11,948 bases of DNA from Gemmatimonadota bacterium (lineage in GTDB: Bacteria; Gemmatimonadota; Gemmatimonadetes; Longimicrobiales; Gaopeijiaceae). The DNA lies in the NCBI GenBank assembly GCA_039589315.1, contig JBDHHQ010000118.1, forward strand, positions 1 through 11,948, given 5' to 3'. Made by a program: the position numbers and the translations under genes. Shown in pieces: positions 1,198 to 11,948 of this stretch; position 1 is the first letter of the stretch, and each line of letters starts with the position of its first letter. The notes beneath the pieces were generated by a model. The model searched no databases and was not told the origin of the DNA. It saw only the letters and a program-made list of their open reading frames with translations.

Positions 1198-1335
1198 ATG
1201 TCCCTCCTGACCCGCCTCAAGGAGCGCAAGCTCGTCCAGTGGGCGCTGGCGTACGTGGACCGGATGCGCGAGGACGTGTTGGCGATGGAGGCGGATTTGG
1301 AGGCTGCTCGACTGGCGAGCGGAAAGGAACAGTAA
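1198..1335 (+). pseudogene. 45-aa remnant: N-terminus of a TolB/TPR membrane protein apparently fused to a C-terminal tail
   Basis: ATG lies 3 nt after the upstream stop. Translation: MSLLTRLKERKLVQWALAY-VDRMREDVLAMEADLEAARLASGKEQ*. LKERKLVQWALAY resembles the N-terminus of this family from recall; the expected TM/TolB/TPR body is missing. Confidence 0.55.
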
Positions 1336-1350
1336 CGAGCACAGTCACAG

Positions 1351-1422
1351 CGCCCACGATTCCGGGTGATCGCCCACGAGCGTCGAACCCAGGAAACAAG
1401 CGCCCACGAGCGCTAGTGGGCG
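1351..1422. repeat. CGCCCACGA direct repeats x3 plus one inverted copy (putative integrase arm-type sites)
   Basis: CGCCCACGA at 1351, 1371 and 1401, inverted GTGGGCG at 1416-1422, ending 12 nt upstream of the tRNA-Lys fragment. Confidence 0.6.
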
Positions 1423-1434
1423 TCCTGCATCTTC

Positions 1435-1477
1435 CTCTTAATCAGTAGGTTCGGGGTTCGAGTCCCTGGCGGGGCAC
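1435..1477 (+). tRNA. tRNA-Lys(CTT) 3' fragment (att-site-like, not a full tRNA)
   Basis: CTCTTAA anticodon loop, TCAGTAGGTT, T-arm CGGGG-TTCGAGT-CCCTG, acceptor 3' strand GCGGGGC-A. Upstream sequence cannot form the D-arm or anticodon stem; no CCA. Confidence 0.8.
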
Positions 1478-1481
1478 TGGG

Positions 1482-1581
1482 GTAAACGAGAGCCCTGCAT
1501 CGATTTAGGTCGGTGCAGGGCTTTGCTATTGGGGATCTGTGTGGCAGTGAGTTCTCATATAAGTCTCACTCGTGACGGATT
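1482..1581 (+). repeat. Left copy of ~100-bp inverted repeat (partner 3548-3646)
   Basis: 1482-1529 matches the reverse complement of 3599-3646 at 43/48. 1561-1581 AAGTCTCACTCGTGACGGATT matches the reverse complement of 3548-3568 at 21/21. The spacers are 31 vs 30 nt and diverged. Confidence 0.9.
1491..1529 (+). terminator. Terminator-like hairpin downstream of the tRNA-Lys fragment
   Basis: AGCCCTGCATCGA (1491-1503) pairs with TCGGTGCAGGGCT (1510-1522), one G-U, followed by TTGCTATT. Confidence 0.55.
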
Positions 1582-1667
1582 TCGTGGGACACGCCGTCGG
1601 CCGCCGTAAGTCGCTGTCATGCATGAGTTTGCCATCTACAGCGGATGCTCTTGTTCCGAGCAAACCG

Positions 1668-1713
1668 TTGTCCTGGTACCGTGGTACCCGCGCGTGTGGC
1701 GGTGTTCAGGGAG
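1668..1713 (+). repeat. 46-bp direct repeat, copy 1
   Basis: TTGTCCTGGTACCGTGGTACCCGCGCGTGTGGCGGTGTTCAGGGAG; 43/46 identical to 1932-1977. Confidence 0.9.
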
Positions 1714-1873
1714 CGGGTCGCGCCGCTCGGCCGCTACAGGCCGCCCCTAGCCCACGGGGGGCTAGGGGGGTCTCTAGGGGGTCCGAAAGGGGGGAGTATC
1801 CCAACCCGATCGCTCGGTGTTTGCTTTGCGATGTGTCTAAGCCATAGTAGAATAATGACTTAGCCTCGGGGCT

Positions 1874-1901
1874 ACTTCTGATAAGGGCCATTATGTAAAG
1901 T
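1874..1901 (+). other. dif: XerCD dif-like recombination site
   Basis: ACTTCTGATAA-GGGCCA-TTATGTAAAGT: 11-6-11 architecture with ATAA/TTAT inner palindrome. The right arm is XerD-type (TTATGTnAAnT), close to E. coli TTATGTTAAAT and B. subtilis TTATGTAAACT. Confidence 0.8.
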
Positions 1902-1931
1902 CGGGCCCTGCATACCCGCACGGAGTATCCT

Positions 1932-1977
1932 TTGTCCTGGTACCTTGGTACGCGCGCGTGTGGCGGCGTTCAGGGAG
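1932..1977 (+). repeat. 46-bp direct repeat, copy 2
   Basis: TTGTCCTGGTACCTTGGTACGCGCGCGTGTGGCGGCGTTCAGGGAG; 43/46 identical to 1668-1713. Confidence 0.9.
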
Positions 1978-1995
1978 GTGGTCCCACCGGGCGTT

Positions 1996-2051
1996 GGCCC
2001 TGGCCGGGGGTCCAATCCGTACCGGCCCTGGCCGGGGGTCCAATCCGTACC
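1996..2051 (+). repeat. Perfect 28-bp tandem duplication
   Basis: GGCCCTGGCCGGGGGTCCAATCCGTACC at 1996-2023 and 2024-2051. Confidence 0.95.
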
Positions 2052-2059
2052 CTGGGTGA

Positions 2060-3433
2060 GGGGGGGGGCCCGTGTGGGGGTACGACGGCTACGTGTACTT
2101 CACCAGCGGGCGAGACGCCTTTCGCGTGCTCAGCGCCGGAGGAGCGGCAGAGGTCCTCCTGAGCCTCGGCGAGGGAGAATCCGTCCATCGATTCACCGAC
2201 CTGTTGCCGTCCGGTGACCGAGCGCTCCACGGCGTGGTCGCCGATGACGAAGGGGAGGTCCGGATCCTCGACCTCGAAGGCGGCGAGGAGCGGACCCTTG
2301 CCTCCGGCGCGTGGGGGAAGTTCGCAGCGCCGGGATACCTCCTGTATCTCACTGACGGCACACTCATGGGAGCCCCGCTCGATGCCGCCGCCATGGAGCT
2401 CACCGGCCCCCCCGTTCCGCTCATCGCCGACGTCCTCGCCTTTTCCGTAGCAGAGGACGGCACTCTCTTCTACTCCACCGGGGCCGGCGGCGGCGGGACT
2501 GTGGCTCGCGCCGTGTGGGTGGACCGCGCCGGCGAGATCACCCCCATCGATCCGGCGTGGACCTTCGACCGGACCACGAATCCCAACGACATCCCGGCCC
2601 TCTCACCCGATGGGACGCGCCTCGCCCTGCGAGAGCTCGCCGAGGACGGCTTCGACATCTGGGTCAAGCAGCTACCGGCCGGCGTCCGCACCCGACTCAC
2701 CCTGGCTGAGGGCGAGGACCGGATGGCAGTGTGGCACCCGAATGGCCGGGAGATCCTCTTCATCTCCAGTCGGGACGGTGACCGACAGGTCTGGATGAAG
2801 CGGGCCGACGGTATCGGCGAGGCTCGTCTCTTCGTCGACTTCGACATGCCGGTGGCCAATGCCGCCTGGACCCCGGACGGAGCGAAGCTCCTCCTTCGGA
2901 CCGCCGGAACCGGCGGCGTGGAGGGTGGCCGGGACATTTACATCTACGATCCCGAGTCCGGTGACTCGCCCCAACCTCTCCTTGCCGAGGGCTTCGACGA
3001 TGGTGCGCCGGCCGTCTCTCCGGACGGTCGCTGGTTGGCATACACCTCCAACGAAAGCAACCGTTGGGAGGTCTACGTGCGTCCGTTCCCCGACGTGGAG
3101 GGCGGCCGATGGCAGATTTCCACCGACGGTGGGCGGACGCCCAAGTGGTCCCGCGACGGTGATGAGCTCTTCTTCCTGGACAACAACGATCAGTTCGTGG
3201 CCGTGGCCGTCGAGACCGACGGCGGATTCCGCGCCGGTACGCCCCAGGTCCTTTTCACCGTCCCTCCCTACATCGAGACCGTCGACCTCAGCTTCCCGTA
3301 CGATGTGGCGCTCGACAACGACCACTTCGTGGCGCTCAGCTACGACATCGGAAACGACGACGACCGTCCCGGCCCGGGCGCGGTGCTGGTGGAGAACTTC
3401 GCCGCGGAGCTTCAGGCCAGGATTCCCCGCTGA
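2060..3433 (+). pseudogene. 5'-truncated PD40/TolB-like beta-propeller (C-terminal half of a Ser/Thr kinase-PD40 protein)
   Basis: ORF 2072..3433 is collinear with the C-terminal half of 4917..7607 (WGYDGYVYF vs WGRDGYLYY; SPDGRWLAYTSNESNRWEVYVRPFP vs SPNDRFLAYVSNSSGRPEVYVRPFP; VLVENFAAEL vs IVVENFQEEL). In-frame TGA at 2057-2059; no kinase domain, signal peptide or TM helix. Confidence 0.75.
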
Positions 3434-3547
3434 GCGGCGGCGGGTGGACAGCCGCGCTCACTCCGTCAACACTGCCACGCGCGCGTAACCATCATCCCAA
3501 CATTCAGTTACGGTACCGGCGGCCCTGTCTCCGGGGCCTGCAAGTGG

Positions 3548-3646
3548 AATCCGTCACGAGTGAGACTTCTGTGATACTCGTGTCGGCACATCGAGAATAT
3601 AGCAAAGCCCTGCACCGATCTAAGTCGATGCAGGGCTTTCCCTTAC
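3548..3646 (-). repeat. Right copy of ~100-bp inverted repeat, including a terminator-like hairpin (3606-3637)
   Basis: Reverse complement matches 1482-1529 (43/48) and 1561-1581 (21/21). Confidence 0.9.
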
Positions 3647-3747
3647 TCTATGCGGAAGGCCCTGCGGGGCAGGCGTGAGGTCGGTGGAGGGGAGTCCTGA
3701 ACCGACACGCTGAATCGGCACACGTCCGGTGCCAAGGGCCCGAAGGC

Positions 3748-3781
3748 AGCCCCACCTGAGGCCGTGACCTCAAGCGGGGCT
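3748..3781 (-). terminator. Hairpin downstream of the tRNA-Ala fragment
   Basis: On the minus strand AGCCCCGCTTGAGG-TCACGG-CCTCAGGTGGGGCT forms a 14-bp stem with 2 G-U pairs, starting 13 nt after the tRNA fragment. No clear U-tract. Confidence 0.45.
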
Positions 3782-3794
3782 TGATGATCTCCCA

Positions 3795-3837
3795 GTGGAG
3801 CCAGGGGGGCTCGAACCCCCGACCTCCGGCTTGCAAA
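3795..3837 (-). tRNA. tRNA-Ala(TGC) 3' fragment (att-site-like, not a full tRNA)
   Basis: Reverse complement TTTGCAA-GCCGG-AGGTC-GGGGG-TTCGAGC-CCCCC-TGGCTCC-AC: anticodon loop TGC, T-arm and Ala-type acceptor strand. The 5' half is absent; no CCA. Confidence 0.8.
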
Positions 3838-3968
3838 GGGAAGATCGCCCTAACAGAAATGCCCATTTCGCCAACTGCAGGCGTCTGTAAGTTATTGCAT
3901 CATAGCAGGTTAGTGTTCATGCCAGGTGACGCCGGGTCCTCCCCGTACACGTCGCTGAAGGGCAGATC

Positions 3969-3987
3969 TGTTACCCGTTTTGTTACC
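3969..3987. repeat. TGTTACC direct repeat pair (putative integrase arm-type sites)
   Basis: TGTTACC at 3969-3975 and 3981-3987, about 130 nt from the tRNA-Ala fragment at the edge of the lower-GC tract. Confidence 0.45.
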
Positions 3988-4003
3988 GGTTGATCGGGTA
4001 GGC

Positions 4004-4733
4004 TTCCGGCCGGTCCTCACGGCAGCGCGCGGCGGACACGGACCGGGCATGTCGCCTTGCGTCACCTGCCACGTGAACAACGGTACGCCACTCAAGCTGC
4101 AGCCACTCCAGGAGAGGGATGGCGGCCGGGTGTACTGGTCGGAGGAGCAGTCGCGATCGAACTTCGAGGTGGTGTCGCGCCTGGTCGTACCCGGAAGCCC
4201 GGAGCGGAGCCGTGCTGAAGAGGGCGCGTGCCGTCGAGGCGGGCGGGGCCACCTTCCGCGTGGGTGGCAAGTTCTTCGACTCCCAGGCTGATCCCGAGTG
4301 GCAGGCGATCGCCGACTGGGTGCGGGCCGCCGACGCTCCGGCCGAGGCGGAGGCGTCCGAGTCCATGCCACCACCGTTGGACTTCCAGCTCTTCCGCACC
4401 TGCGTTCAGCAGATCTTCCTGAACAAGCGGGAGGGGCGTATGGAGTGCGTCCACTGCCATGGCTCCGGCTCGCGCGATTTCGCCCGAGAGATTTCAGAGG
4501 GGAGGGCGTTCTGGAACGTCGAGGAGTCCCGGCAGAACTTTGAGGTTGTCCTGCGTTACATCGAGCCCGGACATCCCATGAGGAGGCGCTTCCTGACGCA
4601 TCCGCTGGCGCCCGAAGCAGGGGGCGATCACTTCCACAGCCGAGGTCGGCGTTGGCTCAGCCAGGACGACCCGGAGTGGCGGATGCTGGCCGCCTGGGTG
4701 AGGGGCGAGCAGGCCCAATGCCTCAGCAGGTGA
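4004..4733 (+). pseudogene. Two-repeat, di-heme (2x CxxCH) cytochrome c-like protein, 5'-truncated and frameshifted
   Basis: Frame of 3980..4291 gives PVLTAAR..CVTCH..WSEEQSRSNFEVVSRLVVPGSPERSR. After a shift at ~4211-4214, the frame of 4119..4733 continues LKRARAVEAGG..GGKFFDSQADPEWQAIADWVR, then a second repeat CVHCH..WNVEESRQNFEVVLRYIEPG..HPLAPEAGGDHFH..SQDDPEWRMLAAWVR. No signal peptide. The 5' boundary is approximate. Confidence 0.7.
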
Positions 4734-4916
4734 TCCCCTCGAGAATGCGGCGCCGGGCCTCCAGGCCGCATGTCAGGCCACCATGACCTGATCCGGCACC
4801 CCATTGGCGCAGAGCTTCCAAGTCGTCGTTTTCTTGCCCTTCCCTGAACCGCTCACACATCTTGAACCGGCCCCGGCCCGCGCCGGTCCCCCCGCCCCCC
4901 AACTGGTCTGCAAGAC

Positions 4917-7607
4917 ATGACGGACGACATTTCCTCGCTCGAACGCCTCAAGGCCGCGCTCGCCGATCGTTACGAGCTCGTACGCGAGCTCGGCGAGGGC
5001 GGGATGGCGACTGTCTATCTGGCCGAGGATCTGAAGCACAACCGGAAGGTCGCGCTCAAGGTCCTGAAGCCCGAGCTGGCCGCGGTCGTGGGAGCGGAGC
5101 GCTTCCTGGCCGAGATCGAGGTCACGGCGAACCTGCAGCACCCGAGCATCCTACCGCTCTTCGATTCGGGTGAGGCAGACTCGTTCCTGTATTACGTCAT
5201 GCCCTACGTGCAGGGCGAGTCGCTCCGGGAGCGCTTGGACCGGGAGCGGCAGCTGCCGGTCGACGAGGCCGTGAGGATCGCGACCGAGTTGGCGGAGGCG
5301 CTCGACTACGCCCACCGCCAGGGTGTGATCCATAGAGACATCAAGCCGGCGAACGTCTTGCTGCAGGAGGGACGGCCGCTCATCGCCGACTTCGGCATCG
5401 CGCTGGCCGTGGGGGCCGCCGGCGGCGCGCGGCTTACGGAGACGGGACTGAGCGTCGGCACGCCGTTCTACATGAGCCCGGAGCAGGCGACGGGCGATCA
5501 GGTAATCGGGCCGCAGAGCGATACCTATTCGCTCGGCTGCATGCTGTTCGAGATGTTGACGGGTGAGCCGCCGTATCCCGGCGCCACGGCTCAGGCGGTG
5601 CTCGGCAAGATCATCGCCGGGAAGCCCGTCTCGGCCACCGAGGTTCGCACTTCGGTGCCGATCCATATCGACGCGGCGATCCGCCGCACCTTGGAGAAGC
5701 TGCCGGCTGATCGGTTCGCCTCGGCGGGCGATCTTGCAAAGGCCCTGGCGGATCCCGGCTTCCGGCATGGTGAGGCTGTGGCTGCCGGCATCGGGGGACC
5801 CAGGCGCTCCTGGAACGCACTGACGATCGGATTGACGGTCGTGGCGGCCGTCAGCACCGGAGGGCTCGTCTTCACGGCTACGCGACCGCATCCATCTATG
5901 CCTGTAATCCGCTATGCCCTGACGTTTCCGGAAGGCCAGGCGCCGGTCGCCGGCCAGGACGCGTTCGGAGTCTCGTTCGGAGTCTCGGCAGACGGGTCTC
6001 GCCTGGCATACGTCGGTCCCGCCGGTGAGGGCGATTCTCAGCTCTGGGTCAGGGAGCGGGACGCGCTCGAAGGCGTTCCAGTGCCCGGTACGGACCTCGG
6101 CGTCCAGCCGTTCTTTTCGCCGGACGGTCAACGCATGGGCTTCATCGTGACCGGCAGCCGCGAGCTCAAGGTCGTGTCACTCGGGGGAGAGCCCCCGCTC
6201 ACCCTGGTCGATTCCCTCGTCTACCGGCTCGGTGGGTCATGGGGGCGAGACGGGTACCTCTACTATTGCAGCCTGCCCGACGGCGGCCTTTACCGAGTGC
6301 CGGCCACGGGCGGCGACATCGAACAGCTTTCGACAGCCGACACCACGCAGGGGGAAACCCGCCATGCGTGGCCGGACGCGCTCCCGAGCGGGAGAGGCGT
6401 TCTGATCACGGTGCAACGGGGCGACAACGCCTACACTCCCGAGGACGACGTTGGAGTGCTGGACCTGGAGTCCGGGCGCGTCGAGATCCTCTTCCGTGGA
6501 CTCCTCGCGCGGTATCTGCCGACGGGTCACATACTCGTGGTCACTCACGACGGGGACTTGGTTGCCGCGCCGTTCGATCAGGAGCGACTCGAGGTCACCG
6601 GTCCAACGGTGCCCCTGCTCTCGGGGCTGCCCGGAGGGGTGCGTGGACCCGACGTGGCGATCTCCCGATCGGGCCGGCTTCTCTACCAGCCCAGCGGTGT
6701 GACCGCCGACCGGGAGTTGATCTGGGTCGATCGCGCCGGGCGAGCCACAGCCGTGGAGCCGGGCTGGACACTGACGCCGGTGGGCAACGGCGGGTTGGCG
6801 CTCTCACCGGACCAGACGAGCATCGCTGTCGACGTCCGACCGGCGGATGGGGGATCCGAGCTCTGGATCAAGCAGATCGGCGGTCCGTTCACGCGGCTCG
6901 GGAGAGGTTGGCGGCCGAGCTGGTCGGTGGATGGGCGTTCGGTCCTGTACCTGTCCGATGTCCAAGGACCTAGCTTTGACATATGGACCCGAAGGGCGGA
7001 CGGCAGCGGAGACCAGGAGCTGGTGCTGGACCTGGACGACCCCCTCGCGGAAGCCCGCCGGTCGATCGCTGGCGACTGGCTCGTCGTGAGAAAGCTCAAC
7101 CCCATCTTCGACGTCTTCGCCATAAGGCCCGGCGTGGATACGGTGCCCGTCCCCTTGATCGCCACGGACTTCGCAGAGTCGTCCATCTCGCTTTCGCCCA
7201 ACGACCGCTTCCTTGCCTACGTTTCCAATTCATCCGGCCGCCCGGAGGTCTACGTGCGGCCGTTTCCGAATGTGGACGAAGCAAGGATACAGGTCTCCAC
7301 GGACGGCGGTGTCGAGCCTGTCTGGGCACACAGCGGGCGTGAGCTCTTCTACAAGAATCAGTCCCGAGAGTTGATTGCAGTCGCCGTGAACACGGACGAT
7401 GCCTTCCAGGTTCTCGGACGCGAGCCCCTCTTTTTGCTGCCTCTCGGCGCATCAGTGTTCTCCGCCTATGCACAGTACGACGTCACTCGGGACGGTCAGC
7501 GGTTTCTGATGTTCCGTTCGACCGGCGGCGTCGGCGAGGGGGAAGTCGACCGCTACATCGTGGTGGAGAACTTCCAGGAGGAGCTGCTGGCGAGGGTACA
7601 GAACTGA
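4917..7607 (+). CDS. Hanks-type Ser/Thr protein kinase with TM helix and PD40/TolB-like beta-propeller domains
   Basis: Kinase motifs GEGGMATVY, VALK, HRDIKPAN, DFG, GTPFYMSPE; hydrophobic ALTIGLTVVAAVSTGGLVF; multiple SPDG/SADG/SPND repeats. Confidence 0.93.
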   Translation: MTDDISSLERLKAALADRYELVRELGEGGMATVYLAEDLKHNRKVALKVLKPELAAVVGAERFLAEIEVTANLQHPSILPLFDSGEADSFLYYVMPYVQGESLRERLDRERQLPVDEAVRIATELAEALDYAHRQGVIHRDIKPANVLLQEGRPLIADFGIALAVGAAGGARLTETGLSVGTPFYMSPEQATGDQVIGPQSDTYSLGCMLFEMLTGEPPYPGATAQAVLGKIIAGKPVSATEVRTSVPIHIDAAIRRTLEKLPADRFASAGDLAKALADPGFRHGEAVAAGIGGPRRSWNALTIGLTVVAAVSTGGLVFTATRPHPSMPVIRYALTFPEGQAPVAGQDAFGVSFGVSADGSRLAYVGPAGEGDSQLWVRERDALEGVPVPGTDLGVQPFFSPDGQRMGFIVTGSRELKVVSLGGEPPLTLVDSLVYRLGGSWGRDGYLYYCSLPDGGLYRVPATGGDIEQLSTADTTQGETRHAWPDALPSGRGVLITVQRGDNAYTPEDDVGVLDLESGRVEILFRGLLARYLPTGHILVVTHDGDLVAAPFDQERLEVTGPTVPLLSGLPGGVRGPDVAISRSGRLLYQPSGVTADRELIWVDRAGRATAVEPGWTLTPVGNGGLALSPDQTSIAVDVRPADGGSELWIKQIGGPFTRLGRGWRPSWSVDGRSVLYLSDVQGPSFDIWTRRADGSGDQELVLDLDDPLAEARRSIAGDWLVVRKLNPIFDVFAIRPGVDTVPVPLIATDFAESSISLSPNDRFLAYVSNSSGRPEVYVRPFPNVDEARIQVSTDGGVEPVWAHSGRELFYKNQSRELIAVAVNTDDAFQVLGREPLFLLPLGASVFSAYAQYDVTRDGQRFLMFRSTGGVGEGEVDRYIVVENFQEELLARVQN

Positions 7608-7709
7608 GGTCACAAAGGGATGTGATCCTCTCGGACACCCCAGACGCCAATACCACGGTCGTTGTCAGAACCGTCACGACAACCCAGGGCACTGTGATCA
7701 AGGGGAACG

Positions 7710-8591
7710 GTGGTGGTGACGCGACGAACACAGCGACAGTTGCGTCACTGGGCTGGCCTCGAATGGAGCGACTGGTTCCCGTTGGACGGCACGCCGCAAG
7801 ACCTGGCCGCGGTTCCGAGAACCGCCGGTGTCTATCGGGTGCGCAGCCCACCCGAGCCACACTCATCTACGTCGGTGAAACCGGCAGGGAGTTGCGAGAC
7901 CGACTGAATGCGCTCCGTCGCGGCATCGTGTCTGTACGAATGCCGTTCAACGATCCACACACCGCCGCACCGTCCCTTTGGGCATGGCGGGACGCCGAGG
8001 GCATGCGTTTCGAGGTCTCAGTGGCCGAAGTCGACATGCCTATGCCCTCGCGGCGAGCACTCGAGTGCTTCTTACTCTGGCGGCACCGTGTCGAGCTGCA
8101 AGCCTCGACGCTCTGCAATCACGGCTGGTTCCATCCGGCGTACTGGAAGAGCGGTAGCCGAAAGAGCGGGCTGATCGGAGGACGAAGAACTGGCGACGAG
8201 CTTGGCGCGGCGCGGGCGGAGGCCAAGGCCCTTGGGCCGTTGGACCCCCAGCAAGACCGCGCTTCTGATCAGCTCCCATGGCGAGTCGGGGGAAGGCTGG
8301 ACTCGCTGGAGCTCACCGGAGTCGCCAATGCGGCCGGGTTGTATCTGCTGCTTGAGGACCGCGAGCTCGTATACGTAGGAGAGACACGGAATCTACGGGG
8401 CCGTCTCGGCAGTCACAGGCGAGTCCTACCTGCTGCAGACGGCTCGATGGTTCCAAACGGATCCGCTAGGGCTGCCGCAACAACGGCGCGAGATGGAGAC
8501 CGATCTCATCGGCGCTTTCTACGAGCACTACGGACGTGCCCCGAACCTTCAGTTCGGTCGGATGCCGAAACAGCAGAAAACGTCCGGCTAG
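7710..8591 (+). pseudogene. Tandem (double) GIY-YIG nuclease, split by two frameshifts
   Basis: Segment 1 (7710 frame): WAGLEWSDWFPL..VPRTAGVYRVR. Segment 2 (7622 frame): LIYVGETGRELRDRL..MPFNDPHTAAPSLW..LE, then AGLYLL..LVYVGETRNLRGRLGSH. Segment 3 (7710 frame again): QRREMETDLIGAFYEHYGRAPNLQF..TAG at 8589-8591. Confidence 0.7.
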
Positions 8592-8592
8592 C

Positions 8593-9009
8593 TCAGCACT
8601 CTCCTTCTCCCGCAGCGTCCTCCGCCGCCACCGCCTTGAGCGCCTCCAGGTGCATCTGCTGCACCGTCGGCACCGCTGTCGGCCCGCCCCGCTCGAGCGC
8701 CGCTACCAGGAACTTGCGCACGTCGATCTGCAGCCTGGCCTGGGCCACCGCCGGCTTCATCGGCTGAGCGCCGTCCGCGATGGCGAGCGTCTCGTCCGCG
8801 AGCTTATCGGCGCGGGCTTGCTTCGCGTCCTCGAGCTGCCGCCGTCGCTCCGGATCCTTCTTGATCCACGACCACAGCATCGTGCGGCTGATGCCGATCC
8901 GTCGGCTGAACTCTACCTGCGAGATCTCGGACAGGATCGCGAAGATCTGGTGCTCGCCGAGCTGGTCTAGCATCGCGAAGACGGATCGGCGCTTTGGTCT
9001 TCCGGCCAT
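8593..9009 (-). CDS. Phage terminase small subunit-like protein (Sf6 gp1-like, N-terminal HTH)
   Basis: HTH-like SQVEFSRRIGISRTMLWSWI, then AKQARADKLADETLAIAD and ARLQIDVRKFL, a pattern I recall from Sf6-type TerS proteins. RBS-like AGGAAGG upstream of the ATG. Confidence 0.72.
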   Translation of the reverse strand: MAGRPKRRSVFAMLDQLGEHQIFAILSEISQVEFSRRIGISRTMLWSWIKKDPERRRQLEDAKQARADKLADETLAIADGAQPMKPAVAQARLQIDVRKFLVAALERGGPTAVPTVQQMHLEALKAVAAEDAAGEGEC

Positions 9010-9092
9010 CGGTCACCTTCCTGTCGGGGGGGCTCTCTGATGATACCCCCGAGGGAAGGAATAGTGGGCGGGCTGGGTGAGGGGTCCTGGAG

Positions 9093-9225
9093 GTGCAACA
9101 GCCGCAACATGCCTTGATCTGCCTGGGTTCTTGGCGGATCTCGAGGGTCCAGCAGGAACGGTCGTGTTGCGGTCCCGCGGACGGCGGAAAGGCCCTAGAT
9201 ACCGGGACTGTTGCGGGTGTTGCGG
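9093..9225. repeat. TGTTGCGG / CCGCAACA iteron-like repeat cluster
   Basis: GTGCAACA 9093-9100, CCGCAACA 9102-9109, and TGTTGCGG at 9165, 9209 and 9218. Paired copies with 9-nt periodicity at each end, in opposite orientation. Confidence 0.6.
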
Positions 9226-9509
9226 TTCGATTAGGGGCCGTTCCCGGCGCGGGCCGATCTTGCACCCGCCACTTCGGTCTCTGGGTGGCGCGGGACTCCT
9301 CGATGGCGCGTCGGCGTGGGCGCGACATGGCTTGATGGAACGATCGCCTCAGCCGTCGATGTTGTGTGGCGGACAAACGATCTCGATCAGGAGCGCTACG
9401 AACCGTCCGGCGGCATCGGCATCCAGGATCCCAGGCCGACCTCGTTTCGACGGAGGCGCCCGGCCGTCATCTGACGCACCGTGTTCAATGGGGCCAGGAT
9501 GCTTCTACC

Positions 9510-9983
9510 CTAATCGTGAGCCAGTTCCACCCAATCCGCCCAACCAGTGGTCTCGGCCAACGCCTGGAATCCCTGCCACGCGGCTTCGCACGCGCTCCCG
9601 CACGCCTCATCGATCGCGTTGAGAGCTTCACTGGGTGTGCCAGAACGAGGCACCCACCAGTCCCTCACGTATACGGATTGGATGTCGTAAACGAGAACGT
9701 ACTGCCCCGGATCCGCATTCCTTTCGCCTTTCATCACCATGAGGTGCATCCCGGGGTAGCGGCCGCTGATGACGGGCTCCCACTCGTCCTTGACGTAGCG
9801 CTCGAAGTCGGCAGGGTCGACCCCGTCCTTGAGCGAGAGGTGGTGGATGCCCAAGAGTCGCGGTTTCACGGCGAGCTCTTCGGGGACCCTCACGCCGGAT
9901 CCGTCGAGGAACCCCGCAACACCCGTGGAAGCCATCAGCACTAAGGACAAAAGGACTAGAAGAGCGGGGGCGAACTTGCGCAT
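9510..9983 (-). CDS. Secreted hypothetical protein (possible dimeric alpha/beta-barrel fold)
   Basis: Signal peptide MRKFAPALLVLLSLVLMASTGVAG; GGAGG RBS 7 nt upstream; alternating strand/helix pattern LSLKDGVDPADFERYV..MVMKGER..YVLVYDIQS. Confidence 0.8.
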   Translation of the reverse strand: MRKFAPALLVLLSLVLMASTGVAGFLDGSGVRVPEELAVKPRLLGIHHLSLKDGVDPADFERYVKDEWEPVISGRYPGMHLMVMKGERNADPGQYVLVYDIQSVYVRDWWVPRSGTPSEALNAIDEACGSACEAAWQGFQALAETTGWADWVELAHD

Positions 9984-10070
9984 GAGAATGCCTCCAGAAT
10001 CACAAGGATCGTGCGATGCTCGCGAACTGCTACGGCGGGTGTCGTCATGGCTGGACGGGACGCTTCGCGC

Positions 10071-11141
10071 TCAGCCGTCCACAACAGGCGGTGGCGGACA
10101 GATGACCTCGATGCCGTCGAGCGTCGTGGTGATCCCGAAGTCCTCGACTATTTCGAGCACGAGGCCGGACTGCACAATCCGTTCCTGCACCAGGTCTCCC
10201 CTTGGAGTAGTATCCAATGTTTCGTGCAAGAAGAGGAGGACGGGGCTTTGAACCACGACCGGCAACGTGACCTCCTCCATCACCTCGACCTTGTCTGCCC
10301 CCACAGCGAGAGCCTCCGCAGCCGATTGCAGACCCACCAACTGGATGCCCTGAGACCACACGTGGGTTTCGAGGTCCATCAGATACGTCTCTTTCCCAAC
10401 GACCGGCTCGAGCGTCAGGCGGTGCAGCACACCCATGACGCCACTGATCGCCACGCTCTCGTCAACACCGCCTAGGCACGGCGTGGTGACCTCCTCAGCG
10501 ACAAAGAGCACTTCCTTCGTCGTGCTCCTGATCGTGCCATCATCGGCGTCGGCCGGCGGCGGACAGACGATGTCGACGCTCTCGAGCGTCGTGGTGATCC
10601 CGAAGTCCTCGGCGATCTCTATGGTGAGACCCGTGGACAGTCCGAAACCAGTGGATTGTGCGTGGGGGACGCCCCCTGCGTTGGAAGCGGATTCGGCGAA
10701 GTCCAGATTGAAATCGACTGCCAAGCCGGTCGGCAGCGCCACCACCTCTTCCGTCACCTCGAACTTGTCCGCCCCCATGGCCAGCAATTCTGCGGCGGCC
10801 TGGAGGCCGACGCCCCGAATGCCCTGGGACCACACCTGAGTATTGAGGTTCAACAGATACGTCTTGCCCCCGGAGATCGGCTCAAGCCTCAACCTGTGGA
10901 CCACGCCAAGCTCGCCGGAGATCTCGACGAACTCGCCCTCGTTTAGGCACGGCACATACACGACGACCGGCTTGTCCTGACCGATCGAGATCACGTCCCT
11001 CACCGTCGTGACGACGGTGCCCTCTCCTGTTACGGCGGCATTGGGCTGGACCTCGGGCGACGAAGTCGGGCTGCCACAGCCGGTTGGAACGAGGATGGCG
11101 CAGAGGGACAGAACAGCGGCGGCGCGGAGCGAGCGTGCCAT
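10071..11141 (-). CDS. Lipoprotein with two tandem ~155-aa beta-rich repeats, unknown function
   Basis: GGGAGG RBS; signal peptide ending LVPTG-C. The repeats share PCL..ISG..GV.HRL.LEP..TYL..L.T.VWSQGI..VGLQ.AAE.LA.GADK.EV.EEV and EDFGITTTL..CPPP. A 30-bp identical DNA stretch occurs at 10117-10146 and 10582-10611. Confidence 0.85.
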   Translation of the reverse strand: MARSLRAAAVLSLCAILVPTGCGSPTSSPEVQPNAAVTGEGTVVTTVRDVISIGQDKPVVVYVPCLNEGEFVEISGELGVVHRLRLEPISGGKTYLLNLNTQVWSQGIRGVGLQAAAELLAMGADKFEVTEEVVALPTGLAVDFNLDFAESASNAGGVPHAQSTGFGLSTGLTIEIAEDFGITTTLESVDIVCPPPADADDGTIRSTTKEVLFVAEEVTTPCLGGVDESVAISGVMGVLHRLTLEPVVGKETYLMDLETHVWSQGIQLVGLQSAAEALAVGADKVEVMEEVTLPVVVQSPVLLFLHETLDTTPRGDLVQERIVQSGLVLEIVEDFGITTTLDGIEVICPPPPVVDG

Positions 11142-11347
11142 GATGACCTCCCTTGGCAGATAGCTCAGCCTACGGCTTCTACGTTATCTGACCGTTATCC
11201 CCGTTTTCAGCCTTTTCCCGACAGACAGCGGCAGCCGATCCCGCGAGGCTAAGGTCACACCATTGGTTTCCAGCCCTTCCCCGGCGGGCAGGAGTGAAGC
11301 CGATGGCCCGCCCGGTGGGTTTTCCTCATCGGCAGGAGGGTGATGCC

Positions 11348-11948
11348 ATGAGGCTGTCAACGCTTCGCCCGACCGCTCGGTCGGGCCTGCGCCGCCCACT
11401 CTATCTCAGTGCGTCCGTGGCGTTGTTGGTCTCGGGCTGTGGAGACGAGCCAGCGACGCCTGCCGATGTGGGCCACCGCCCAGACCTGACCGTTGTCACC
11501 GGGAATAAGACTCTTTTGACCCAGTGGGAGGTGGACGCACAGGCTGGGCTCACCAAGGTGATAGGGACTCTCTATATCTTTCCCTACGGATCTCCGATCA
11601 TGAATCTGGACGCCCTTTCTAGCCTGACCTCTGTGGGGCGGTACCTCGAAGTCATTTCCAACGACGCCCTCATGAGCCTGGACGGCCTGTCCGGTGTGAC
11701 CTCGGTGGGGGAGGGCCTCTTGGTCCACCGAAACGCCGTCTTGGGAAGCTGCTCGGGCATTGCCGGGCTTGTGAGGAGCGGAGGGGTCACGGGCACGGTC
11801 ACGATTGAAGACAACGCGCCCGGCTGTAACTCCATCGAAGAGGTCCTAGCGAGCGCCCCCACGCCGGAAGAGCAGTTCGAGGATCTCGCAGACATGGTCC
11901 AGGACCTATCCGACGCGGGCACGCTCACGAAGGGTCAGGCCAATGCTC
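11348..11948 (+). CDS. Lipoprotein with receptor L-domain/LRR-like repeats; 3' end outside window
   Basis: Not in the ORF track because it runs off the edge. AGGAGG at 11334-11339; MRLSTLRP..SVALLVSG-C lipobox; repeats IMNLDALSSLTSVGRYLEVISN / LMSLDGLSGVTSVGEGLLVHRN; TIEDNAPGCNSIEEV; then helical LADMVQDLSDAGTLTKGQANA. Confidence 0.8.
   Translation, partial: MRLSTLRPTARSGLRRPLYLSASVALLVSGCGDEPATPADVGHRPDLTVVTGNKTLLTQWEVDAQAGLTKVIGTLYIFPYGSPIMNLDALSSLTSVGRYLEVISNDALMSLDGLSGVTSVGEGLLVHRNAVLGSCSGIAGLVRSGGVTGTVTIEDNAPGCNSIEEVLASAPTPEEQFEDLADMVQDLSDAGTLTKGQANA

Follow-up and report, generated by a model that had tools for sequence, protein, structure and literature searches.

Genomic islands of the kind collected by Islander are described as restoring the tRNA gene into which they insert while displacing a 3′ fragment of it, with a class whose crossover is centred on the anticodon and with members stacked in tandem arrays (PMC4383910). 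Arrays of tandem fragments are known to arise when insertion at one tRNA is repeated (PMC4383910; 10.1101/2020.12.28.424599), and one integrase subfamily may, on the account given in 10.1101/2020.11.02.365908, target different tRNAs at a single sublocation. Here we describe a locus of a Gemmatimonadota bacterium in which 3′ fragments of tRNA-Lys(CTT) and tRNA-Ala(TGC) face each other across a truncated gene and a dif-like Xer recombination site. It lies in a stretch of 11,948 nucleotides, hereafter the window, which is the entire contig C118 of assembly GCA_039589315.1 (G000). Judging from sequence comparisons, we consider it probable that the locus is a fused head-to-head junction of two decayed arrays of tRNA-targeted islands with a passenger Xer site; its layout is a scar mosaic and not one designed cassette.

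The locus shares with Islander islands, as these are described, the restored tRNA and displaced fragment, the presence of one fragment per array member and the use of tyrosine integrases; it differs in having fragments of two isotypes opposed to each other, a layout that is removed by the filters of that tool, and in that no intact integrase lies within the window (PMC4383910). It also recalls the Prochlorococcus tycheposons in the features reported for them, namely tRNA-seeded islands, partial tRNAs between successive insertions and scattered elsewhere, fragmented integrases, xis/primase/terS hallmark genes and inter-element rearrangements (10.1101/2020.12.28.424599). Unlike tycheposons, it belongs to another phylum, and the likeness rests on layout and hallmark genes and not on integrase-lineage profiles.

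Results and discussion

G000 is a short-read metagenome-assembled genome (MAG) of 6.67 Mb in 288 contigs, estimated to be 95% complete with 5% contamination. Labels in G denote genomes, those in C contigs (of G000 unless a genome is named) and those in L fetched loci. G001 is a relative from the same genus as G000, G180 a MAG assigned to another genus, and G006 and G010 are single-contig genomes among the relatives.

The mirror-like layout reported in the initial annotation (short repeats, two tRNA fragments, an inverted pair, hairpins, a dif-like site and a truncated gene) was found as described. The tRNA-Lys(CTT) fragment (1435–1480, plus strand) extends from its anticodon loop up to the gene end and is identical over 46 of 46 nt to the G001 gene, starting at tRNA position 32. 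The tRNA-Ala(TGC) fragment (3793–3838, minus strand) is likewise identical over 46 of 46 nt to C121:4526–4571 and C11:12793–12838. Both had been said to begin at the anticodon loop, which holds for Lys, whereas the identity of the Ala fragment starts 1 nt ahead of it. The CACTGGG endings, which had been regarded as anomalous in place of CACCA, proved to be ordinary: CACTG is the native gene end, as all three tRNA-Ala genes of G000 end in CCACTG without an encoded CCA and the G001 tRNA-Lys gene ends in GGCACTGG.

As in Islander islands, the end fragments are therefore identical to host-type tRNA genes, through C121 for Ala and through G001 for Lys. A full tRNA-Ala(TGC) gene with an adjacent integrase is present in G000 on C121. 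The tRNA-Lys(CTT) gene of G000 itself is unassembled and falls in a gap beside C227, the upstream flank of the G001 gene matching C227 up to its first base. Further copies of the Lys(CTT) fragment lie at C33:32423, C33:130 (the same as C69:1) and C69:19796, and in G012 a tRNA-Lys(CTT) gene is followed by integrase, xis and rep genes. In G006 and G010, upwards of 1 Mb separates the Lys(CTT) gene from the Ala(TGC) gene. These comparisons support the identification of both fragments as displaced attachment (att) cores of tyrosine-integrase elements that cross over in the anticodon loop, as had been proposed from the fragments themselves. The ATCTTCC motif ahead of both fragments is present, with a 2-nt offset, but was rejected as a common core signal because a 7-mer is shared by chance in 3.2% of 20,000 random 22-nt pairs; an ATCTTCC-type ending was seen in 0 of 12 related P arms. 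The tRNA-Ala(TGC) gene at C121:4496–4569 is only 88% identical to that of the same-genus G001, yet identical in its 3′ half to that of G020, from another genus.

Displaced fragments are widespread in G000. Using 39 tRNA genes (from 50 ARAGORN calls, 11 false or pseudo calls having been dropped by eye) and the G001 Lys gene as queries, we obtained 39 partial matches at E <1e-3 and none in the reversed genome; among the 39 are a pseudogene of almost full length and a fragment that lies in the overlap of two contig ends and was counted at both. They form 25 adjacent pairs, of which 20 are co-oriented (14 of the same isotype), 3 convergent and 2 divergent, and the pair in the window is one of only two convergent pairs with different isotypes. 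The short-read contigs break at tRNA repeats, for example at C227 and at C33/C69. A permuted tmRNA called by ARAGORN at 3321–3885 was rejected, since a normal tmRNA is present on C26 and the call overlaps a gene end and att arms; an Rfam scan of the window gave no matches at E up to 1.

Some displaced fragments in these genomes have features of their own. Those of Ser, Pro and Met tRNAs may carry a structured insert of 86–95 nt (71 nt in G016) in the T-loop, always between TTCG and AATCC and with conserved ends and central motif. G000 has ten copies (C27:37364, 38932 and 40252; C68:16471; C127:8245; C142:2424; C159:7009; C176:370; C184:77 and 5176) and G016 one (L267:2936); the start motif occurs 9 times in G000 against 0 in the reversed genome. 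The insert looks like a miniature element targeting T-loops, for which no carrier enzyme was identified. Fragments consisting of the 5′ half or of the anticodon region alone (Gly, Val, Thr and Ile; C38:35746, C98:11955, C195:846 and C52:28223) would indicate elements that restore the 5′ side of the tRNA as well. An array of 17–18 tRNA genes at C68:16206–18887, whose order is conserved between two genera (L089, G024), includes in G000 a degenerate tRNA-Pro duplicate bearing the T-loop insert.

Attachment arms on the two sides of the locus

To the left, the Lys core is preceded by arm A (1330–1434, plus strand), which resembles the distal, P-type att arm of an element with a P4-like integrase and is accompanied by no integrase gene. 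It contains an AGTAAC/AGTCAC pair followed by three CGCCCACGA repeats at 1351, 1371 and 1401. Homologues precede a Met(CAT) fragment on C159 (81% identity) and a Lys fragment in G012 (76%), and arm A can be aligned with the P arm next to the integrase of G004 at p about 0.01, one of 2 matches at ≤0.01 in 60 comparisons. Its two motifs occur in 2 of 12 arms of the clade, those of the two closest integrases. Assignment of arm A to the P4-like integrase family is thus modestly indicated.

The core is followed by arm B1 (1482–1710, plus strand), the left inverted repeat (IR-L), which is a proximal, P′-type arm of a P4-like-integrase satellite. It comprises a terminator-like hairpin (1489–1524), a AGTCTCAC repeat pair at about 1548–1581 and an end motif reaching 1710; its outer end forms a direct repeat (1665–1725, plus strand) that is 87% identical to a second copy at 1929–1989. 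A second P′-type arm of the same satellite family, arm B2 (3466–3646, minus strand), is the right inverted repeat (IR-R) and has no tRNA core. The inverted pair 1482–1581/3548–3646 is 78% identical, with a looser extension to about 1710/3466. The pair annotated initially is therefore real, but it is not private to the locus, as a third copy lies at C37:34811–35007 (83% identical to IR-R and 76% to IR-L). Among 314 genomes the exact B-arm motif occurs only in G000 (3 copies) and G180 (2 copies), and metagenome contigs gave 0 matches. Twelve one-mismatch matches elsewhere were discounted, being in coding DNA and similar in number to the control, and a 19-nt likeness between 1482–1500 and 1895–1913 was set aside as possibly due to chance. 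Hairpins of the mirror-like layout have z values of −5.0, −8.3 and −3.6. Because the two arms across the Lys core bear different repeats, whereas those of the intact element described below are identical, 1330–1710 reads as a tandem junction formed by the distal arm of one element, the Lys core and the proximal arm of another.

On the right side, arm B2 abuts a tyrosine integrase remnant reduced to its final 16 codons and stop (3650–3700, plus strand; its MRKAL.. end is in register), which aligns with the integrase genes on C119 (C119:1478–2641, PF00589) and C93. This stub is the only tyrosine integrase sequence in the window; intact integrases of cognate type are found elsewhere in G000 and in relatives. 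The abutment of IR-R on the stub without a core would point to a deletion. Next comes arm C (3701–3792, minus strand), the P′ arm of a tRNA-Ala element, with ACCGACAC-type repeats and a hairpin at 3748–3781. Among the relatives' loci listed, 13 of 28 have this hairpin after the Ala 3′ end, and in 2 of those 13 an integrase lies within 1.5 kb. In G215 it stands between a full tRNA-Ala(TGC) gene and a convergent integrase 55.7% identical to that of C119. Arm C therefore belongs to the C119/C93-type integrase family. Beyond the Ala core, arm D (3839–3990, minus strand) would be the distal arm belonging to the element that occupies the contig's right part. Its TGTTACC repeats at 3969 and 3981 (pair 3969–3987) have a single further occurrence as a pair in G000, at C27:40423, with a Ser fragment on one side and an integrase on the other, and none in the reversed control; a sediment contig matches 3815–3964.

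The right-hand element carries a small-terminase-like gene, a satellite hallmark (8593–9009, minus strand; PF20901, phrog_1482), with paralogues on C37 (89% identical), C190 and C206. In 8593–9240 this gene is preceded by GCAACA/TGTTGC inverted and direct repeats, and the unit of gene plus repeats is also present on C190 (83% over 614 nt), the gene alone on C37 and C206. The unit is probably a non-autonomous satellite mini-module. An open reading frame (ORF) with a GIY-YIG domain (7622–8767), apparently frameshifted, overlaps the terminase-like gene.

An intact relative of the B-arm satellite

An intact satellite with B-type arms was found in G000, split between C52 and C37; its two halves are not on one contig and were joined through a 31-bp duplication. 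C52 carries an intact P4-like integrase (C52:22686–23903; Pfam PF00589 and PF13356, also PF22022), followed by an HTH_17 protein (xis) and a CHC2-Toprim primase. The C37 half contains terS, cargo and the B arm and follows immediately on core genes, which are shared with G001 as far as this junction. The relative thus has the gene set of phage-inducible chromosomal island (PICI)/P4-like satellites (integrase, xis, primase and terS, without a structural operon). The AGTCTCAC repeat pair on C52 is identical to that of the C37 B arm, and its score was reached in 0 of 300 shuffles. In G001 the site is empty and lies in the 3′ end of a gene whose LysM-like repeats were recognised by reading the sequence, and a 31-bp duplicate of this gene end reappears on C52 in G000. 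The C52 integrase has 11 homologues in 250 family genomes; BLAST showed an anticodon-loop 3′ fragment 200–500 bp upstream of 10 of them, and a short upstream fragment was recognised by eye at the eleventh; the isotypes include Val(TAC) (three), Pro, Asn, Lys(TTT), Lys(CTT) and Ala(TGC) (two). These findings show that arms B1 and B2 belong to the P4-like satellite integrase family. With integrase families traced for the arms, the earlier suggestion that at least two different islands end here facing each other, with a third type of end duplicated inside, was borne out.

The C52/C37 satellite (sites C52:22376–22406 and C37:34754–34810; empty site L241, G001:C260 near 25563) has integrated at a protein gene's 3′ end, while its closest relative targets tRNA-Val. 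The 31-bp gene piece replaces most of the tRNA core, of which a remnant from the T-loop to the end is still there. The site appears to be a snapshot of an integrase switching its target.

The breakpoint and the truncated gene

Left and right sides meet at a single breakpoint near 1990, where a kinase-PD40 gene has been cut. The second copy of the direct repeat (1929–1989, plus strand) is the last element-derived sequence of the left side, which stops at 1989, and homology to the gene from the right-hand cargo starts at about 1985. Alignment to the full-length paralogues on C164 and G001:C309 places the breakpoint at 1985–2071 (plus strand), a region with a 28-nt tandem duplication (1996–2051) and a 1-nt gap near 2059; this duplication, the integrase stub and the direct repeats are additions to the features annotated initially. 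The remaining 3′ half of the Ser/Thr-kinase-PD40 gene (2072–3433, plus strand), cargo beside arm B2, is truncated at its 5′ end. The kinase half is absent and the PD40 domain is present, with 90% identity to the C164 gene and 89% to that of G001. Its 452 codons are open, with 76 synonymous and 44 non-synonymous codon changes against C164, and since this erosion is no greater than in the intact paralogues the break looks recent. The matching 5′ half was not found in the G000 assembly, and inversion and deletion can therefore not be told apart.

A second, non-terminal dif-like site

The window contains a secondary dif-like Xer site at 1874–1901 (plus strand), with a perfect XerD arm, a variant XerC arm and the centre GGGCCA. 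Against a profile derived from the dif strings of relatives, 34 in all (that of G025 is unpublished according to its depositors, and the conclusion is independent of it), the chromosomal dif of G000 at C2:58268 scored 45.7, the window site 32.7 and the next site in G000 13.9, the best score in the reversed genome being 16.1. The chromosomal dif is intact, at least 58 kb from the contig end and syntenic with G001 on both flanks. The window site differs from it at 6 positions and matches only 2 of the 6 bp of its centre; it is a second, non-terminal dif-like site. No third site rose above background in G000, and XerD-arm look-alikes on C171, C250 and C60 were rejected as having no XerC arm and not exceeding background. 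To the left of the site, 1711–1873 (plus strand) holds a G/C-run hairpin (z −3.1) and a CTAAG..CTTAG palindrome and is likely a remnant of an element end or packaging region. Separate sediment contigs match 1730–1861 and 1869–1929, and the 61-nt direct repeats 1665–1725/1929–1989 bracket the site with a spacing of 264 bp.

In its XerC/XerD core, an 11-6-11 arrangement in which the XerD arm is conserved while XerC arm and centre are variant, the site is like cer, psi and the attP of integrative mobile elements exploiting Xer (IMEX) as these are described (PMC5357621). In contrast to an IMEX attP, it is not at or beside the chromosomal dif, which shows none of the hybrid flanks of an integrated IMEX, and its centre is non-homologous (PMC5357621). 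Flanking boxes found in relatives recall the accessory sequences of cer and psi, but they lie on both sides of the core, and the window copy has no accessory boxes (PMC5357621). Acinetobacter Tn6022 islands also carry a dif-like site with a perfect XerD half, a hybrid site proposed to recombine islands among themselves; as reported, it is paired, on a Tn7-like element, with an XerC-like gene of its own, whereas the window site adjoins no recombinase gene and the carriers here are tRNA-targeted integrase elements (PMC11014353). The window site is probably a mobile-element Xer site. Its arm pair was found on 33 viral loci, and one of these, a 52.9-kb, high-GC phage contig (L189) with portal, head and weak terminase matches, has a site identical at 27 of 28 positions; of 19 viral matches to the 16-mer centre, most were discounted as chance-like. 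In pdif modules of the Acinetobacter type, cargo lies between paired dif-like sites; contig C118 holds a single one.

Searching 314 family genomes for the dif pattern gave matches in 118, seven of which have 2–5 matches, one of these seven being dubious. Fifteen non-canonical candidates were fetched: 9 have integrase, insertion sequence (IS), terS or Abi genes nearby, 4 have a tRNA gene at a distance of less than 2.5 kb, 3 are chance-like or poor and 1 is probably a primary dif. The link between tRNA att sites and Xer sites raised by the initial annotation thus recurs in relatives, as a feature of single elements and not as a mirror layout. In G082, one dif-like site (L303) is beside a Lys fragment and a tRNA-Ala gene; another (L305) is just upstream of a terS gene of the same Pfam family as that of the window, between 38-nt direct repeats 283 bp apart, a spacing that resembles the 264 bp in the window. 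Around eight relatives' sites picked by eye (L304, L307, L308, L309, L310, L313, L314 and L319), three 12-bp boxes lie at about −105, −70 and +26, 23 of the 24 positions having ≤4 mismatches. The box motif was present upstream in 10/17 secondary against 2/58 primary sites, a partly circular count as the motif had been chosen by eye from secondary sites. The boxes resemble the ARG-box. An ArgR match was obtained in 4 of 5 genomes tested; G205 has none and yet has four boxed sites, which leaves ArgR unsupported as the box binder.

Origin of the locus and alternative explanations

The arms and cores can be accommodated by successive integrations. The attP of each element, a PICI- or tycheposon-like satellite, would contain the 3′ half of the targeted tRNA; the element's tyrosine integrase would cross over in the anticodon loop, restoring the tRNA and displacing the 3′ fragment. 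Later arrivals would push older elements outward, leaving each fragment flanked by one element's distal arm and an older element's proximal arm. The left, Lys array would then consist of arm A, Lys core and arm B1, followed by the end region of the element to which arm B1 belongs, with its own dif-like site. The right, Ala array, on the minus strand, would consist of arm D, Ala core, arm C with the integrase stub, a deletion, and arm B2 with cargo. One illegitimate rearrangement near 1990, a deletion or an inversion, would have disrupted the cargo gene while fusing the two arrays head-to-head. Resolution of dimers of the element's circle by XerCD was the most likely role of the dif-like site, which would now be a passenger. 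We infer the assignment of arms A and D, the order of events, the choice between deletion and inversion, and the function of the Xer site.

Several observations weigh against this history. The window site shows no three-box flank (best match 2.8 bits, background level), the tie of arm A to its integrase clade is modest (p about 0.01), and the reciprocal inversion junction with the kinase half was not found in G000. The contamination of 5% and the unplaced state of C118 also count: a contig-end search gave no link to C69, C11 or C121, so that membership in the two canonical tRNA arrays is unproven, and none to C227, and GC skew is too weak for placing the contig. Lastly, a virtually identical contig occurs in the other-genus MAG G180, which fits mis-binning and also movement of the whole unit. 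G180:C95 carries 1228–11948 with 0 differences across 1228–11601, and both contigs terminate at the same base; the left end of C95 differs, and there is one repeat-unit difference near 11600. There, the last ORF has an extra leucine-rich repeat unit in G180 (11602–11635 against L138:10408–10444), either real variation or a collapsed repeat. None of five other G000 regions tested has a near-identical copy in G180. As the genes of the window are 89–90% identical to paralogues in G000/G001 against up to about 77–84% to those of G180, and its Ala core is only 87–89% identical to the tRNA of G180, mis-binning appears likelier than transfer. G180:C95 may count as a second assembly of the same layout, though its independence is unproven and it perhaps derives from related reads.

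The G180 copy, near-identical where no other tested region is, would also suit a functional multi-address element or episome, that is, a recombinase-free circle that carries attP-like sites for both Lys and Ala as well as a dif-like resolution site and integrates at either tRNA by means of integrases supplied in trans. The attP geometry of arm A, Lys core and arm B1 and the presence of terS and a Xer site agree with it. We nevertheless find such an episome unlikely: the arm repeats differ across each core, unlike the identical arms of the intact C52/C37 element, the integrase stub and broken gene indicate decay, the gene and Ala-core similarities favour mis-binning, and, the G180 copy aside, none of the 300 family genomes searched showed the layout. 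A purposeful composite cassette, as the initial annotation had considered, is only weakly supported, since the arms across each core come from different elements, IR-R is coreless and the middle gene is broken.

An assembly chimera, with contigs joined at the 46-nt tRNA repeats or at the B arms, has to be considered for a short-read MAG with many tRNA repeats at which contigs break. Short contigs from four public sediment sequencing runs match five separate modules of the window, but none bridges them, and the sequencing runs contained just 5–8% of the sequence words. We judge a chimera quite improbable given that G180:C95 shows the same layout, albeit perhaps from related reads, that no long repeat underlies the key junction near 1990 and that the arm-core pairings recur in other runs. 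Inverted homologous ends enclosing the dif-like site and a gene might suggest a cassette that switches between IR-L and IR-R; with only 78% identity, no shared core, no invertase nearby, the same orientation in G180 and a third arm copy that is plainly an island end, this is very improbable indeed. An integration hotspot at the terminus, which the initial annotation had considered, with IMEX-type insertion at dif, as the significant dif-like site and the XerC/D-like genes on C2 and C3 could suggest, is scarcely credible, because the true dif is intact mid-contig on C2 with syntenic flanks and the window centre, matching it at 2 of 6 positions, is not its hybrid.

Conclusions

Beyond the locus itself, arm-conserved, core-swapped att sites were observed, in which one arm type occurs with a Lys, a Val-like or a protein-gene target. 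We tentatively raise the possibility, which we regard as doubtful at present, that tRNA-integrating satellites of Gemmatimonadota carry a working XerCD site (with three boxes in relatives), resolve circle dimers with it and, as a by-product, recombine islands across tRNA loci, and that together with the core-swapped att sites this constitutes a modular recombination network. No description of an island-borne three-box Xer site was found in the open-access literature searched at listing level. The locus belongs to a known kind of system, and the recurring island-borne Xer site and core-swapped arms are worth following. It shows in well-resolved form how islands build up and decay, in a phylum whose mobile-element literature is sparse, and its att arms, cores and integrase families are now available for direct testing. 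Were the wider reading true, the head-to-head junction would be one product of a network of island recombination, and a functional three-box Xer site would represent a new Xer accessory system and a route for island shuffling.

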